From the IMG/VR virus record IMGVR_UViG_3300017963_000250: a stretch of DNA of 20,000 bases. One strand, written 5' to 3'. The notes under the pieces are model-generated. The model made no database searches. It was not told the DNA's origin and saw nothing but the letters and a program-made list of their open reading frames with translations. Position numbers and translations under genes: made by a program. Positions 6,740 to 20,000 of the stretch are shown in pieces. Origin of the DNA: an uncultured virus (IMG/VR IMGVR_UViG_3300017963_000250) (Duplodnaviria > Heunggongvirae > Uroviricota > Caudoviricetes). Every line of letters begins with the position of its first letter. Within the stretch, counting starts at the first letter, position 1.

Positions 6740-8329
6740 CTATCTACGTCCGTAATACCCGCGCGGCATCCACGGCGCGTATTTGTACCTTCTGGCGTTA
6801 CGGAGAAGTTCCTCGTCGAACTGCTGCATGTACCCGCCGTAGTAGGAACCGAGCGATGCGCCCCGACGCGGCAGCGTCAGGTAATCGCCCATACCCTGGT
6901 TTTTCTTGTCCGGGAGGGTGAGGTAGTCGCCCATGCTGTTCTTGTCCGGCAGGGTGAGGTAGTCGCCCATGCTGTTCCGACGCGGCAGGGTCAGGTAGTC
7001 GCCCATGTTGTTGTTCTGGCGCGGCAGGGTCAGGTAGTCGCCCATGTTGTTCCGGCGCGGCAGGGTCAGGTAATCGTCCATCCCGACCGGAGCGACGTAG
7101 GGGGTGCCCCACTTCTTGCGGATGCACCCGATCGCCTGTACCGTCTTCAGGACGCCGACGATCCCGGCACCGACCTGGAGCGCGAAGGTGTGCCTCGGAG
7201 CCAGCCCCGGCGAGAAGTAGTCGAGGGCCTTCCCGACACCATAGGAAAGGGCGGCGACGCTGCCCCAGGTGGTGGCGACCGGCACCATCTCGTCTACGAC
7301 ATGGAGCACGTTCGCTCTCTGGGTCACGTTCTTGCGGAGCATGTCGTTTACCCAGTAAGCGAGTTTGCCGCTCTGCTTCTTCACCCACTCGTGGCCGCTC
7401 ACGAAATGCACGGCGGCACCGGCGATCGCGCCCTCGCCACCGTAGACCGCCCATTCCTGCCAGGTGAGAGGCGGGTTGACATGAACAAGGCCAAGTCCAC
7501 TGCTTCTTATGGTCGACTTCAGTTTTCCGTAATCGCCACCGGCACCGGCAATGATACCTTCCGCGACCTCAGACGGCACCTTTTCCCGCAACCGTCTGGC
7601 GAGAAACGCGAATTTCTTCTCGCTTGTTTGGAGTTCGTTGATTGAGCGAACCTGCCTCGGAGTCAACAACTGCATGGTACCCGGTTCCGCTTCTCTGATG
7701 CGGGTGGGCCTGCGCCTTCCGGCGACCGCGCCGCGTTCTTTGCGCCGCGTCACTGCCGCCTTGCCCTTCTTCGTCTTCGGTTTCGGTTTCCCGTTCTTCG
7801 GTTTGGCTTTGCGCTTCCGTTTCGGGCGGTATCCGCGCGCGGCGGCGTAAAGGGCTTTTCTTTCGGCAACACTGAGCTTCGACCAGTCGGCGTACGGCCA
7901 CATGAAGGGTGACCCCTTGTAGTCCTTGCCGTCATATTTCCACGACCCGTCCCAGCCCATCTGCTTGGCGAAGGTCTTGGACACGGTGACGCCCTTGTGC
8001 CCCTTGAGGTACCGCTGGTACTTCTTCGAAGCTTTCGGGTAACCCTTGATCGACTTCTTGGTTCGCTTCCGCTTCGCGACGGCCTCGACAGCCGGTGGCG
8101 AGGGGATGTTCTTCATGATCTTGCGCGCGTCACGATACCGACCGGCCCGCGTGAGTCCGGGGTTCTCCATCGCGGAGATCCGTTGGGCGGTCTGCCACTG
8201 GGTGAGGCCGGGATACTTCCGCCCGGTCTTGCCAAACCGGTACGTTGCCCGGTCTCGCTTGTAGGTGCGTTTACCTTTCTTCTTACGACGACGCTTCCTT
8301 CTCGGCGGGTTCAACATAAGAACTGGCAT
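6740..8329 (-). CDS. Large basic core/membrane protein with NP motifs and C-terminal MGDYLTLP repeats
   Basis: The start is probably ATG 8329 (MPVLMLNPPRRK; AAGGAG RBS) rather than 8377. K/R-rich N-terminal half, hydrophobic helices after VNPP, then a repeat tail. Confidence 0.85.
   Translation of the reverse strand: MPVLMLNPPRRKRRRKKKGKRTYKRDRATYRFGKTGRKYPGLTQWQTAQRISAMENPGLTRAGRYRDARKIMKNIPSPPAVEAVAKRKRTKKSIKGYPKASKKYQRYLKGHKGVTVSKTFAKQMGWDGSWKYDGKDYKGSPFMWPYADWSKLSVAERKALYAAARGYRPKRKRKAKPKNGKPKPKTKKGKAAVTRRKERGAVAGRRRPTRIREAEPGTMQLLTPRQVRSINELQTSEKKFAFLARRLREKVPSEVAEGIIAGAGGDYGKLKSTIRSSGLGLVHVNPPLTWQEWAVYGGEGAIAGAAVHFVSGHEWVKKQSGKLAYWVNDMLRKNVTQRANVLHVVDEMVPVATTWGSVAALSYGVGKALDYFSPGLAPRHTFALQVGAGIVGVLKTVQAIGCIRKKWGTPYVAPVGMDDYLTLPRRNNMGDYLTLPRQNNNMGDYLTLPRRNSMGDYLTLPDKNSMGDYLTLPDKKNQGMGDYLTLPRRGASLGSYYGGYMQQFDEELLRNARRYKYAPWMPRGYYGRR
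6864..7081 (-). repeat. Six in-frame copies of M(G/D)DYLTLP with short R/K/N linkers
   Basis: GGCAGGGTCAGGTAGTCGCCCAT-like unit repeated six times on the + strand at 36-42 bp periods, with synonymous variation. Confidence 0.95.
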
Positions 8330-8361
8330 ACGTTTCTCCTTTGCTTTACTGTTCTTCCGTT

Positions 8362-8796
8362 TTATTTGTGTAACCAACCATCTTTTTTCATGATCGTTTC
8401 GCCCAGCATGTAGACGTTGCCCTCTGTGTCGCTCACCAGAAAGGTTTGGGGTGCCTTGTGGACATACTTGTATGGTTGCTTACGAGAGTTTCTCCTTGGG
8501 GTGTAATAGATATTCTCCATGACCCCGATGTGCGAGACTATCTTTACCTTCCGCTCATCGATACCCGGCGGGGTTTTTTGCAAAGTGATTTTGTCCGGCA
8601 AAGCGTGGTGTTGTCGCCAGAAATCTTTCACCGAGGCGTTGAATTCCTTGCGCGTCAGACTAATACCCGCCTTCCTCGCCAGACGCTGCGCGTCCAGCCA
8701 CAGGTTCTCGACCTCGTCCGACTTGAGGTCGAGCGGCGGGTTCACCCGGAGCAAAAGTGGGTTCTGTTTCCGCTTCGCCTTCTTCCGCTTCGCCAT
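8362..8796 (-). CDS. Basic protein with two NP motifs followed by a globular domain
   Basis: Abuts the upstream stop. MAKRKKAKRKQNPLLLRVNPP leader. Confidence 0.8.
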   Translation of the reverse strand: MAKRKKAKRKQNPLLLRVNPPLDLKSDEVENLWLDAQRLARKAGISLTRKEFNASVKDFWRQHHALPDKITLQKTPPGIDERKVKIVSHIGVMENIYYTPRRNSRKQPYKYVHKAPQTFLVSDTEGNVYMLGETIMKKDGWLHK

Positions 8797-15392: not shown

Positions 15393-15403
15393 TTTACTTC
15401 CTT

Positions 15404-15625
15404 CTACCTTTTCTTTTTCGTCGCCTTCTTCGCGGTTTTCTTCTTCGCGGCAGGTTTCCTTGCGGTCGTTTTCTTTTTCGCGGCGGGCTTTTTCTTCGCG
15501 GTTTTCTTTTTGGCGGTCGTTTTCTTTTTGGCTTTTTTCTTGGGTTTCGCGCTTTCGAGCATACCGCCCAAAATGCGCAAAGCTTTCTTCCTTGCCGGGG
15601 TCATTCTCACCATTTCTTCTGCCAT
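15404..15625 (-). CDS. Histone H1-like Lys/Ala-rich DNA-binding protein
   Basis: AAAGGTG RBS. KKTTAKKKTAKKKPAAKKKTTARKPAAKKK repeats. First gene of the leftward operon. Confidence 0.8.
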   Translation of the reverse strand: MAEEMVRMTPARKKALRILGGMLESAKPKKKAKKKTTAKKKTAKKKPAAKKKTTARKPAAKKKTAKKATKKKR

Positions 15626-15638
15626 AGTTTTACACCTT

Positions 15639-15791
15639 TATCACAAAAGTTTGACTGATATATCACGAAAGTTTGACTGATCTATCATATCGTATATATA
15701 GTAAATTACGTAATTGCAGGCGTGTCAATTAAAAAAGTATGACTGATCAGTCATATTTATCTTGACAAAAAGTCAAATATCAATATAGAAT
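15639..15791. promoter_or_regulatory. Divergent promoter/operator region
   Basis: Two 22-bp tandem repeats (15639-15682) and a perfect palindrome TATGACTGATCAGTCATA (15738-15755). Back-to-back TTGACA boxes on the minus (15723-15728) and plus (15762-15767) strands; the plus box has TAGAAT at 15786-15791. Confidence 0.7.
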
Positions 15792-15899
15792 AGGCAAAAT
15801 ATAGGGTCGGTTAATTTTTGGCCCTGTTATAAGTCACAACAACGTTTTGAAAGGTACGGCAGAAATGAAATAAAAAAAAATTTTTTCAGGAAAAAAAAC

Positions 15900-16499
15900 G
15901 TGAAAAGAAAAAGTAAAACCAAGGCAAAAAAACTCGCCAAGATAGAGGCGAGGAAAAAACGCCGGATAAACGTGTACGTGTGCCCGTTCTGCCTGGGGAT
16001 GAACAACTACATCCAGCCGTCGGTCGGCAACCACAAAAATTACTTCCGGTGCGATATCTGCCACGCTCGCGGGTTCGTCGAGGAGCAGATAGTAAAAGAA
16101 TACCTGATGATAGTCGAAGAGGTGATCGACAAGGAACTCCCGAACAAGCTTTACCGCGAAGACACCATCCCGCCCGAAAAGCAAGTGGATCTTATTGCGA
16201 AAGAGATCGCGATCAAAGAAGAAAAGGAGGATACAAAACGTGTGAGCCAATGGGACCGGACACTGTGGCTAAAAGAGTACCTGTGTCCGTTCTGTTTTAC
16301 CATGGAGACTTCCATCAAGATGAACAGGGGACTTGCGCACTACACCATCTTTTGCAAGCAATGCGCTTCGATATTTTTCCTTGACCGGATGGAGCGCGCG
16401 ATCCCGACGATGATGTTCATCGAACGCCTTCTTATCAAAAACTATTCGACCACTGACGCGGCCAGGCGCATTGCCAACAGTCGCACAAGGTCGATCTAA
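15900..16499 (+). CDS. Double Zn-ribbon protein, putative transcription regulator
   Basis: YVCPFC...CDIC and YLCPFC...CKQC; basic N-terminus. The GTG start is uncertain. Confidence 0.75.
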   Translation: MKRKSKTKAKKLAKIEARKKRRINVYVCPFCLGMNNYIQPSVGNHKNYFRCDICHARGFVEEQIVKEYLMIVEEVIDKELPNKLYREDTIPPEKQVDLIAKEIAIKEEKEDTKRVSQWDRTLWLKEYLCPFCFTMETSIKMNRGLAHYTIFCKQCASIFFLDRMERAIPTMMFIERLLIKNYSTTDAARRIANSRTRSI

Positions 16500-16905: not shown

Positions 16906-18705
16906 ATGGCAACACTGACACCACCGAAAAAGAGAGAGAGGGACACCTCGTCGAGAGATATCCCGAAAAGCGAACTGCAAAACGAAGTCGCAAAGGCGAT
17001 AAAATCGCTGCCGGGCGACGCGAGCGCGTTTTACTGGTTGATAAAGAAAAAATCGGCAACAGGCGGGCTGCAAGAGACCGCGAAACTGCCGGCGAACGAA
17101 CCGGTCGAAGACAAGATCGCCGACTCCGAATGGGGCGGGCCGGGCGAATACCGGCTCTATCTCTTCGATAACGACGACAAGCGGATCGAGGAAGTAAAGA
17201 CCATGCGCGTCAACATCCCGGACCCGATCACCCTCAATATAGAGGACGATGACGACGACGATGACCGGCCACTGCGCAAACGCGGACCGTACGTGTATCG
17301 TGACCACCCGGAAGCGCCGTCGAGGCCGGAGGACTACATGGAGGTGCTCCAGCAAAACCATCGCCGCATGATCGAAACCATGCAGATGATGCAGATGCAA
17401 AAAATCCAGACGAACATGCTGGTCTCGGACGACGACGCAAAACCTCCCCCTCCCCAGGAAAAAAAAGACGACCCGACCATGGAGGCGATGCGAACGATAC
17501 TTGAGAACATGCATCGGCAAACGACCGAGACGATGCAAAAGATCGAGTCCGCGAAGCAACGCGACGACATAGTCTCGCAGAACGCACAGCAACGCCAGGA
17601 GACCCGCGACCTGATCCTGGCACTCAGCAAACGGGACGACGGGTCGGGGAACCTCACACAGCTTATCAGCAGCATGAACCAGCAGACCCAGGCGATGATG
17701 CATCAGATGAGCGAACAGAACCGAACCATGGTACAAACGATGATGGAGTCGACCAGGAGCCAGGTCGAGATGATCGCGAAGCAGATAGAGATCATGACCA
17801 AACCGCGTGACACCGGGTGGCAAAAGGTGCTCGAAAACCCGCTATTTATAAAACTCGCAACCGACCTGGTCAAAAGACCAGAATCGTCCCCGCTCGAAAA
17901 AATGGTGCCAGAACTTATCGGAGGCGTCGCGACCACGATGATGTCGACGAGCACGGCGATGGTGCAAAAAGTGATGGAGTTCCAGCACGCACCGAGTGAG
18001 GACCCGTTAATGCAAAAGGTCGAGGCCGCGCAAAAAATCGCCGGCATGATCACGCCGGCCATAAACGAGATCGTGGAGAAGATCGCCATAAGGCAACAGG
18101 AGCCTGCGCCATCGGCCGCGATCGACCAACCGCAACCGGCGATCCACGCCGCGCCGCCGACGCCTACTCCGCATCGGTTGCCGCCACCGGCACATTACCG
18201 ACCGGAACCGACCAATTACCAGGCCGAACCGGCCACGCCGCCGCAACCGAGTCCGGCCACGCCACCGACGAGTACGATCTCGGCCCACAACCCGTACATG
18301 CTCTTCCCGTCCGAACCGGTAACGGCGACCCCGACCCTTGGCGAGCAACCGATGCAACCTCCTCCGGAACCGGAAAAATCGCCACCACCAACACCTGCGC
18401 CCGCACAGGATCAGGTCATGGAGCCTGCCACCGAGGAGGAACGCAAGATCAAGGCCGAAGTGCAGAAAGCGTTCGCGATAATGATAACCTGCATCAAAAA
18501 GGACAAGCCCGAGTTTGACAAAGCGTTTGAGCAGGTACAAGCACAGACCCCGTTTATCGACAACATGATCAAAAACGCGACCATGGACGAACTCGTGGAA
18601 TTGATTAGCAAGTTCGGTCTCGACACAAAGACGATCGAGAAGCTAAAAGAGTTTTTCTTATTCTACAAAGAGAAAGCCAGAGAAGGAGCGCCGGCAAATG
18701 GATGA
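16906..18705 (+). CDS. Large Met/Gln-rich coiled-coil and Pro-rich protein of unknown function
   Basis: AAGGGGG RBS. Globular N-terminus (WGGPGEYRLYLFD), acidic tract, M/Q helices, long Pro-rich linker and helical C-terminal domain. Confidence 0.85.
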   Translation: MATLTPPKKRERDTSSRDIPKSELQNEVAKAIKSLPGDASAFYWLIKKKSATGGLQETAKLPANEPVEDKIADSEWGGPGEYRLYLFDNDDKRIEEVKTMRVNIPDPITLNIEDDDDDDDRPLRKRGPYVYRDHPEAPSRPEDYMEVLQQNHRRMIETMQMMQMQKIQTNMLVSDDDAKPPPPQEKKDDPTMEAMRTILENMHRQTTETMQKIESAKQRDDIVSQNAQQRQETRDLILALSKRDDGSGNLTQLISSMNQQTQAMMHQMSEQNRTMVQTMMESTRSQVEMIAKQIEIMTKPRDTGWQKVLENPLFIKLATDLVKRPESSPLEKMVPELIGGVATTMMSTSTAMVQKVMEFQHAPSEDPLMQKVEAAQKIAGMITPAINEIVEKIAIRQQEPAPSAAIDQPQPAIHAAPPTPTPHRLPPPAHYRPEPTNYQAEPATPPQPSPATPPTSTISAHNPYMLFPSEPVTATPTLGEQPMQPPPEPEKSPPPTPAPAQDQVMEPATEEERKIKAEVQKAFAIMITCIKKDKPEFDKAFEQVQAQTPFIDNMIKNATMDELVELISKFGLDTKTIEKLKEFFLFYKEKAREGAPANG

Positions 18706-19192: not shown

Positions 19193-19456
19193 TCATAACT
19201 GCTAGTTTTGCACCAATGTTCATAACCCCAGTTATGAACCAATGTTCATAACAACGACGTGATAGTGTGAAAAATTTTGCACAGTACCACATCGTCCCCT
19301 GGTCTCGCAAAAAAGTTTGTGCCGACAATGGCCTGGGGGTGATGTCGCAGAATTTCCCCTGTGCAAGTGTCACTATGTGTCATGGTCACAGGGTGACACT
19401 TGCGGGACAAATGCGGCATTGCCCCGGTGTTAACATTATTATATTGAGAAAAAATA

Positions 19457-19484
19457 TTGACTTATCCGGGGATTGTGGTATACT
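19457..19484 (+). promoter_or_regulatory. Possible sigma70-type promoter
   Basis: TTGACT-16 bp-TATACT with a TGn extension. Confidence 0.4.
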
Positions 19485-19602
19485 ATAAGCGTATCCAGAA
19501 CTGGATAGTGTCCAATTTTGGAGAATTCACTGTCCTCTTTTTAGGACACTTTCAATAAAAACAAGCTCGTACCTGTGCCGCAACAAAGCCAGGTTGAATT
19601 TT

Positions 19603-19663
19603 TTAAGTTGTTGAGCTGTAACAACTTAAGGCTAAATAAACTATTGTTGGCACAGTGTTTGCT
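19603..19663 (+). promoter_or_regulatory. Sigma54 (-24/-12) promoter with upstream IHF-like inverted site
   Basis: TTGGCAC-AGTGT-TTGCT at 19647-19663 has exact GG-N10-GC spacing. TTAAGTTGTT-N7-AACAACTTAA at 19603-19629 contains a TCAAnnnnTTA IHF-like core. Confidence 0.7.
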
Positions 19664-19673
19664 TTATACCTCT

Positions 19674-19987
19674 ACTGCCCGCGGCAGGGCGAAAGCCAGC
19701 CAGACCGCGCGGCGCTCTTTGACAATTATATACAGAGGGAGATTGACGCAGGATAAGCTACAGAAAAGCGAAACAGGCTGCCGGAAACGGTAAGTGTTTA
19801 GAGGCGCAAAAGTGCAACGAGCAAAAGTAAGTAGCTTATGACATGGCGGAGAAATTAGCTACCACTAATAATCCGCTCCGGGCGCAATAGAAACATTGCG
19901 TTTTTACCGGTGCCGAAATTAACCCTATAATACCCCTTTACCCCTAAAACAAAAGCCCCGGAAAACTTCGGTTTTCCGGGGCTTTTG
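19674..19987 (+). ncRNA. Candidate structured non-coding RNA or leader (~310 nt)
   Basis: Bounded by the predicted sigma54 +1 (A19674) and a terminator. Contains several hairpins with GAAA loops, a 9-bp long-range helix and boxA-like GCTCTTTGACAA. No credible ORF. Confidence 0.5.
19950..19987. terminator. Intrinsic terminator, probably bidirectional
   Basis: CAAAAGCCCCGGAAAAC-TTCG-GTTTTCCGGGGCTTTTG is a perfect 17-bp stem with a cUUCGg loop and A/T tracts on both sides. Confidence 0.9.
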
Positions 19988-20000
19988 CTATTTATAGAGA

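Follow-up and report, generated by a model that had tools for sequence, protein, structure and literature searches.

A sigma-54 promoter joined to an rRNA-type hairpin and boxA, followed by a putative structured RNA, at the end of an uncultured viral contig

Gene Content and Gene-Free End of the Element

The window analysed here is a stretch of 20,000 nucleotides from the record of an uncultured virus (IMGVR_UViG_3300017963_000250), and its features are collected in Table 1. The element is unclassified and probably viral, and its proteins are orphans. When 28 ORFs of the window were compared with Pfam and PHROGs, a transglutaminase core and a Lar-like zinc ribbon were recognised and all other matches were weak; no tRNA was found in the window, and a protein atlas search with the proteins of the element returned nothing usable. 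Proteins of 599 and 545 residues were both singletons in a word-based search. For the second of them, an exhaustive search recovered 12 proteins including the query, among which one other is full-length (33% identity); this relative is absent from the viral contig collection. The C-terminal domain of the 545-residue protein, of about 80 residues, is repeated in very large proteins, and could thus belong to an adhesin or a fibre.

The 199-residue protein with two zinc-ribbon-like units, in addition to its similarity to Lar restriction alleviation proteins, shows a weak match to a Q-like antitermination family of PHROGs (E 6.8e-4), and possibly regulates the genes that run rightward. Next to it lies an AT-rich divergent control region (15393–15900, G+C 0.40), in which AAAGTTTGACTGAT is repeated, a palindrome surrounds GACTGATCAGTC, and a promoter of the TTGACA type is present.

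The right-hand end of the window holds no convincing gene over 808 bases, and its first part (19193–19410), upstream of the promoters described below, is dense in repeats to which proteins may bind, as at an operator, an origin, or a packaging site. A metagenome contig of 9068 bases (L005) is identical to the window in 5353 of the 5353 bases fetched and has the same terminal base; this shared end could be a genome terminus, a recurrent assembly break, or a strain-divergence junction. It has to be considered, although we regard it as unlikely, that the promoter and the boxA described below are real, but that this 800-nt end acts mainly at the level of DNA (packaging, replication origin, or module junction), the stems at 19745–19905 having no function as RNA. 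The complete lack of genes, the lower G+C content (0.445 versus approximately 0.56), the many direct and inverted repeats (the 23-nt copies at 19204–19252 and the palindrome with 17-nt arms at 19363–19403), and the identical contig that stops at the last base of the window are all consistent with such a role. However, the repeats that resemble protein sites lie upstream of the promoters and none of them inside the transcription unit, and the folding of that unit, as discussed below, also argues against it.

Table 1. Features of the 20,000-nt window discussed in the text, with coordinates counted from its first base.
Feature	Position	Strand	Description
545-aa protein	6740–8377	−	Singleton in word-based search of 5.8 billion clusters
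Small lysine/alanine-rich ORF	15393–15626	−	Adjoins divergent control region
199-aa protein with two zinc-ribbon-like CxxC units	15900–16499	+	Lar restriction alleviation, E 9.5e-8 (Pfam)
599-aa protein	16906–18705	+	Singleton in word-based search of 5.8 billion clusters
Gene-free end region	19193–20000		808 bases without convincing gene; G+C 0.445 versus ~0.56 in coding part
23-nt direct repeats, also palindrome-forming	19204–19226 and 19230–19252		Repeat search
24-nt palindrome	19254–19295		Repeat search
17-nt-arm inverted repeat (palindrome)	19363–19403		Repeat search
Sigma-70-type promoter-like site	19457–19484	+	TTGACT, 16 nt, TATACT, TG before −10; 10/12 matches plus extended −10
Perfect 10-nt inverted repeat, TTAAGTTGTT / AACAACTTAA	19603–19629		7 nt between arms; 100% complementary; ends 18 nt upstream of −24 element
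Sigma-54 (−24/−12) promoter	19648–19662	+	TGGCAC-N5-TTGC, then T; sole exact match in 20 kb
5′ leader hairpin, boxB-like in position	19676–19714	+	Outer stem 19676–19684 with 19705–19714, enclosing GGC-GAAA..GCC
boxA, GCTCTTTGACAA (12-mer)	19714–19725	+	Candidate NusB/S10 loading site; single exact occurrence in window
RNA domain 1	19753–19839	+	9-bp closing helix around three small hairpins, one GAAA loop, one AAAA loop
RNA domain 2	19845–19877	+	Two-part hairpin GGCGGA..AUUAG / CUAAU..UCCGCU; pair probabilities 0.95–0.96
RNA domain 3	19882–19905	+	Hairpin GCGCAAU/AUUGCGU, then UUUUU; pair probability 0.57
Strong intrinsic terminator	19950–19996	both	17-bp perfect stem (19950–19987), CTTC loop, A-run before, T-runs after on both strands

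Promoters and Upstream Elements

The assignment of the unit to sigma-54, made in a preliminary description of this DNA from its letters alone, agrees with a perfect match to the promoter core, in which the GG of the −24 element and the GC of the −12 element stand at their fixed spacing. When one mismatch is tolerated, three matches to this core are found in the window, against 1.02 expected. In sigma-54 promoters the start site lies at a usual distance from the −24/−12 elements, and transcription is thus predicted to start near position 19674. Promoters of this class stay inactive unless they are switched on by an ATP-driven activator. No Pfam match to the enhancer-binding activator domain was found among the 28 ORFs scanned, and the activator, for which the window shows no gene, is therefore probably that of the host.

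Upstream of this promoter lies a site resembling a sigma-70-type promoter, from which another transcript, independent of sigma-54, could run through the unit. Four such sites are present in the region against 1.7 expected, a count that is not significant by itself. The perfect inverted repeat that lies between both promoters is a candidate protein-binding site by its form, and a palindrome just upstream of the promoter is also present in another family of loci with the same layout (L006/L030). The palindromes of the window at 19603–19629 and 19363–19403 could serve as upstream binding sites of the activator.

Leader Hairpin and boxA

The leader begins with a hairpin in the position of a boxB, whose pairs reach probabilities of 0.88–0.99 in the partition function. 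The elements previously noted in it, a CTGCC/GGCAG hairpin and a GGC-GAAA-GCC motif, lie at 19675–19687 and 19688–19697, respectively. The 40-nt leader folds with −20.0 kcal/mol, corresponding to a z-score of approximately −1.7 (15 and 22 of 300 shuffles were as good in two runs). The hairpin ends at the boxA, which starts about 40 nt after the predicted start and is unpaired, except for its first G, in both the minimum free energy and the centroid folds. Between the sigma-54 core and the boxA, both exact, there are 51 nt.

What had been described as a boxA-like word is an exact GCTCTTTGACAA, a variant that also occurs as the boxA of rRNA leaders in Planctomycetota (see below), and the order of hairpin and boxA is that of rRNA leaders, as had been proposed. 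Compared with the gamma-proteobacterial consensus GYTCTTTAANA, as given in PMC5725501, 10 of 11 positions agree and position 8 is a G. No boxC was recognised after the boxA when the sequence was read by eye, without a boxC consensus from a relevant host as a guide. By analogy, NusB/S10 binding and Rho resistance are predicted for this boxA. The boxA also contains a TTGACA, which could be taken for the −35 box of a sigma-70 promoter; this possibility was discarded, as there is no −10-like hexamer 16–18 nt downstream and the promoter scan lists none.

To place the 12-mer among the boxA elements of cellular rRNA operons, 16S rRNA genes were located with the Rfam model RF00177 in Planctomycetota genomes, and 761–1500 nt upstream were read for 17 of them. 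The exact word lies 100–310 nt before the 16S rRNA gene in three of these 17 genomes, a total that rises to 11 with up to one mismatch and to 15 with up to two, whereas no boxA-like word was found upstream of the gene in the remaining two. At least one phylum thus uses this word natively as the boxA of its rRNA leaders, although this does not identify the host of the element. Linking the boxA to the 27F primer site gave no case in 151 Planctomycetota genomes, a result that carries no information.

The RNA Body and Its Terminator

Downstream of the boxA, the transcript is predicted to fold into three domains followed by a terminator, and here the stems previously listed were all recovered. In domain 1, ATAAGCTAC (19753–19761) pairs with GTAGCTTAT (19831–19839), a helix of 9 nt that is 100% complementary in the repeat search, reaches a pair probability of 0.99, and encloses the hairpins TGCCG-GAAA-CGGTA and GCGC-AAAA-GTGC. 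The two further stems correspond to domains 2 and 3, and the helices of the unit have mean pair probabilities of 0.95–1.0, with the exception of that at 19882–19901 (0.57). Domain 3, with its run of uridines, resembles a pause site or a weak terminator ahead of the main one, although it is absent from the list of the terminator scan. A helix between leader and trailer is predicted to be weak (0.53–0.66).

The perfect terminator that had been described was confirmed as a hairpin of 17 pairs, nine of them G-C, with a 4-nt loop and a T-rich tail. It is bidirectional, the T-run being better on the − strand, and 13 nt separate its stem from the contig end.

The stability of the fold was compared with that of shuffled sequences. 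Domain 1 has a z-score of −3.98 and the core 19745–19905 one of −3.0 (−3.02), none of 300 dinucleotide shuffles being as stable in either case, while 19726–19945 has a z-score of −2.77 (3 of 300 as good); these sub-windows were picked after the fold had been seen, and their z-scores are somewhat optimistic. For the 272 nt from 19674 to 19945, without the terminator, the z-score is −1.94 on the + strand (6 of 200) and +1.61 on the − strand (195 of 200), whereas the 323-nt RNA with the terminator included reaches −5.2. This strand asymmetry speaks reasonably well for an RNA transcribed as the + strand. A strand-specific signal is not what a DNA-level role of this region would predict, and its concentration exactly between the boxA and the terminator fits an RNA role better.

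No ORF of at least 20 codons starts after the predicted start on the + strand, and a small protein gene in the unit was accordingly rejected. The RNA family had not been recognised in the preliminary description, in line with the lack of matches to Rfam 15 at gathering scores over the whole window; at E-values up to 10 there are 16 sub-threshold matches, the best of which are terminator look-alikes on the 19950–19987 hairpin, on either strand. Relatives of the RNA core were found neither by locus search, nor by blastn against the phage collection, nor via the neighbouring proteins. Thus, the earlier interpretation as a structured non-coding RNA is supported in part: it gains from the ORF-free body, from folding on the + strand only, and from the recurring layout described in the next section.

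Recurrence of the Promoter–Hairpin–boxA Layout

Three public collections were scanned with a strict pattern of 22 fixed bases, consisting of the sigma-54 core, 36–66 nt, and the boxA. Viral contigs yielded three loci, compared to none when the boxA was reverse-complemented (a control run for viral contigs only), and one further locus when the E. coli-type A variant of boxA was used; the exact promoter word of the window is absent from this collection. Metagenome contigs yielded 27 loci and species genomes 14, of which 13 belong to a single Planctomycetota genome and one to Brackiella. The Brackiella locus (L039) lies inside an open frame of 548 codons and is hence a chance match. None of the 20 recurrent loci tested contains rRNA or any Rfam family.

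Identical and paralogous copies were collapsed to 17 independent representatives, including the window. Their segments from the predicted start to the boxA have a mean z-score of −1.20 (Stouffer Z −4.9 versus shuffles), and eight of them fall below −1 (the window, L002, L003, L004, L006, L016, L020, and L022), with hairpins that end 0–7 nt before the boxA in the loci where they are clear. The other nine show no clear hairpin, and some of these are probably chance co-occurrences. Two features that the pattern does not require are also shared: an A or T after TTGC in 15 of the 17 representatives, and a TT after the boxA in 6, where about one would be expected. In the related loci L016 and L025, moreover, the hairpin is kept through two compensatory pair changes among nine predicted pairs. 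Altogether, the layout recurs in roughly eight independent families.

These scans also bear on whether the promoter-like and boxA-like words of the window stand together merely by coincidence, with no such transcription taking place, which we consider very improbable. The pattern does match by chance in large databases, as illustrated by the matches elsewhere that lack a clear hairpin (about half of them) and by at least one, L039, inside a 548-codon frame, and under uniform base composition genome_contigs, with its 596 billion bases, should contain about two matches. Nevertheless, under the same assumption the joint pattern is expected only about 7e-8 times per 20 kb. Moreover, in the window it stands in an ORF-free setting, in the right order with hairpin and terminator, and with both unrequired features, the T after TTGC and the TT after the boxA.

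The context of the comparable loci differs from that of the window. Among the seven other families with a clear hairpin, the first mechanically called ORF of at least 60 codons begins 16–137 nt after the boxA in five (L002, L003, L004, L006, and L016), 20 nt after it in L022, and 455 nt after it in L020. This proximity in most comparable loci suggests that the usual job of the module is that of an mRNA leader. Several contexts are those of phages: L002 lies near a transglycosylase and L003 near a small terminase, both have runs of small ORFs, and in L030 a virion protein is encoded downstream. The records of L002 and L003 carry direct terminal repeats and, together with that of L045, are rated complete. 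The sigma-54 activator domain PF00158 was found in none of four viral records with the same layout, three of them rated complete, and these promoters, if they work, would consequently depend on a host activator. The phage RNA polymerase domain PF00940 was found in none of three records, an uninformative result, as the control had no match anywhere either. Terminator scans of L007, L018, and L020 revealed no clear terminated non-coding unit like that of the window. L011 and L014 are identical in their sigma-54 promoter, leader, and boxA, and diverge completely six bases past the boxA; either the cassette may move between contexts, or the strains may differ at this junction, which is of the kind considered above for the shared end of the window.

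A Multi-Copy Family in One Planctomycetota Genome

An 8-Mb Planctomycetota genome (G001) holds 24 exact copies of GCTCTTTGACAA, versus one of the reversed control word, and 13 of these copies lie behind an exact sigma-54 core, with a hairpin of invariant stem and variable loop. Across the metagenome and genome scans (L031–L044, L004, and others) the 26 loci fetched for this family have 15 distinct leader sequences, which precede glycoside-hydrolase, oxidoreductase, and other genes. The 16S leader of G001 itself carries the one-mismatch form GCTCTTTGAAAA. Outside the 13 sigma-54 matches, 11 further copies were fetched (L046–L056), in five of which the 28-nt word TTGAATAGAGACAGCATTGAGCTTTCAG or a close variant follows the boxA; an exact copy is also present in L050 and L051, which are truncated by contig ends. 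Soon after TTGAATAGAGACAGCATTGAGCTTTCAG a number of contigs of this genome stop, which suggests a multi-copy element.

The G001 leaders share with the window the strict pattern and the boxA 12-mer followed by TT, their hairpin ending 4 nt before the boxA. However, they are cellular, occupy 13 places in one genome, and stand before protein genes, and neither their hairpin nor the RNA downstream resembles in sequence that of the window.

Comparison with Known Systems

Antitermination based on boxA is well established for rRNA operons and lambdoid phages. More recent extensions concern suhB (PMC5725501) and, as mentioned in PMC13753749, CRISPR operons.

A close parallel in layout is the rrn leader, in which a boxB hairpin, boxA, and boxC act with NusB, S10, NusA, NusG, and SuhB. 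Like rrn leaders, the unit has a hairpin in front of a boxA that is predicted to be single-stranded, both in the first 50 nt or so of the transcript, with a boxA identical to that found before the 16S rRNA in some Planctomycetota, and like rrn operons it continues with a structured untranslated RNA and finishes at an intrinsic terminator. On the other hand, its promoter is of the sigma-54 and not of the sigma-70 type, no boxC was recognised in it by eye, its RNA body measures some 0.2 kb and has no counterpart among rRNAs or in Rfam, the leader–trailer helix is weak, and the unit lies on an orphan, probably viral element.

Phage precedents exist as well. In T7 (L057), GCTCTTTAACAA occurs exactly at 813–824, 63 nt after the host promoter A3 and before gene 0.3, and is not annotated in the RefSeq record. 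The early leader of T7 (A1–A3) thus resembles the window in joining an exact rrn-type boxA to host-type promoters without a protein of the lambda N type, and also in its tandem promoters, a disposition that the window possibly shares (19457–19484 and 19648–19662). A phage leader that links host-type promoters to an rRNA-type boxA is, consequently, a known arrangement. The differences are that the T7 promoters are of the sigma-70 type and lead straight into protein genes, whereas the window combines a sigma-54 promoter with a folded, ORF-free RNA and a terminator. Lambdoid nut sites also recruit Nus factors through a boxA and a hairpin on the nascent RNA. In them, however, boxA precedes boxB and the phage N protein is required, while in the window the hairpin precedes the boxA, so that it does not have the form of a nut site, and no match to the N-protein family was found in Pfam or PHROGs among the 28 ORFs scanned.

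As for the product, GlmY/GlmZ, Qrr, and CrcZ are small RNAs dependent on sigma-54, GlmY and GlmZ combining sigma-70 and sigma-54 promoters. The unit of the window is similar to them in its sigma-54 promoter, short non-coding RNA, and intrinsic terminator, but its RNA is longer, lies on a mobile element, and has no sequence or structure match in Rfam. To our knowledge, no boxA has been reported in any of these RNAs. A full-text literature search, judged from titles and abstracts, returned no description of the combination of sigma-54 and boxA.

The novelty claimed at the outset holds, therefore, for part of the unit: what is new is the sigma-54 promoter before the boxA and the uncatalogued RNA body, the latter known from a single sequence, while a phage leader with a boxA behind host promoters was already present in T7.

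Regulatory Model of the Unit

The reading we tentatively favour, giving it a little less than even weight, is that of a non-coding unit that is complete in itself, has the layout of an rRNA operon in miniature, and produces a stand-alone RNA of approximately 315 nt. Host RNA polymerase with sigma-54 would start near 19674 once an enhancer-binding activator, probably encoded by the host, is active. The first 40 nt would then fold into the hairpin, exposing the boxA, which would load NusB/S10, together with NusA and NusG, onto the polymerase. This loading would shield the untranslated transcript from Rho, and may also aid its folding. About 200 nt of multi-stem RNA would be made before transcription stops at the strong terminator (19987–19996), releasing the product of about 315 nt. 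As to its function, our guess is that the RNA would serve in regulation or as a scaffold, and would be produced only while the activating signal is present.

Several observations speak for this stand-alone RNA. Both the sigma-54 core and the boxA are exact, and the hairpin ends at an unpaired boxA. The 12-mer is a real rrn-leader boxA, and the same succession of promoter, hairpin, and boxA recurs elsewhere. The body is free of ORFs, with a core that folds better than shuffles on the + strand only. In ribosomal RNA operons, which serve as the model here, transcription likewise finishes at intrinsic terminators, and the terminator of the unit is very strong. Terminators with A- and T-runs on both sides usually sit between convergent units, and the bidirectional form of this one thus argues against co-directional genes just downstream and favours a stand-alone RNA.

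Other observations weigh against it. The searches recovered no homologue of the RNA core that could lend support through covariation, and the z-score for the whole 272 nt is just −1.94. Comparable loci mostly place an ORF soon after the boxA (16–137 nt in five of seven), and the unit lies 13 nt from a contig end that is common to an identical contig and is possibly a terminus or a module junction. In addition, according to PMC13753749, intrinsic termination is likewise subject to interference from the rrn antitermination complex, so that read-through of the terminator may occur.

These last points lead to a possible, although doubtful, alternative in which the unit would be an antitermination leader, the resistant polymerase, in some or all transcripts, reading through 19882–19905 and 19950–19987 into genes beyond position 20000; if the contig end is a genome end, the target genes would lie across the joined ends. 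The module usually lies 16–137 nt before a mechanically called ORF and in the same direction as the downstream genes, some of the comparable loci being phage operons (the virion protein of L030 and the small-ORF runs of L002 and L003), and in T7 the boxA is placed after the early promoters of host type and before gene 0.3. The succession of a weak and a strong terminator also resembles a graded barrier. It is the ORFs that follow the module elsewhere, together with the interference of the rrn complex with intrinsic termination reported in the same source (PMC13753749), that keep this leader under consideration.

Within the window, however, no downstream gene is visible, and the terminator that the polymerase would have to cross is both bidirectional and very strong, with 17 perfect pairs. 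The E. coli rrn system acts mainly against Rho, and not against strong intrinsic terminators. The well-folded, ORF-free RNA of about 225 nt between boxA and terminator also exceeds what a simple leader would need.

Beyond the window, a broader proposal, which we put forward as a speculative one and hold with some doubt, is that uncultivated phages and at least one Planctomycetota lineage share a cassette in which a sigma-54 promoter is fused to an rRNA-type hairpin–boxA loader. Such a cassette would make transcription dependent on a host activator and resistant to termination, and in this element it would drive an uncatalogued structured RNA of approximately 315 nt instead of an mRNA.

Biological Significance

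The RNA body described here would be a new structured RNA, and its value, resting on a single sequence, is that of a lead. The recurrent fusion of sigma-54 promoters and boxA in phage-like DNA, if true, would mean that entire operons or non-coding RNAs of some phages are gated on a host signalling pathway, and that these phages borrow the machinery with which their hosts elongate rRNA.
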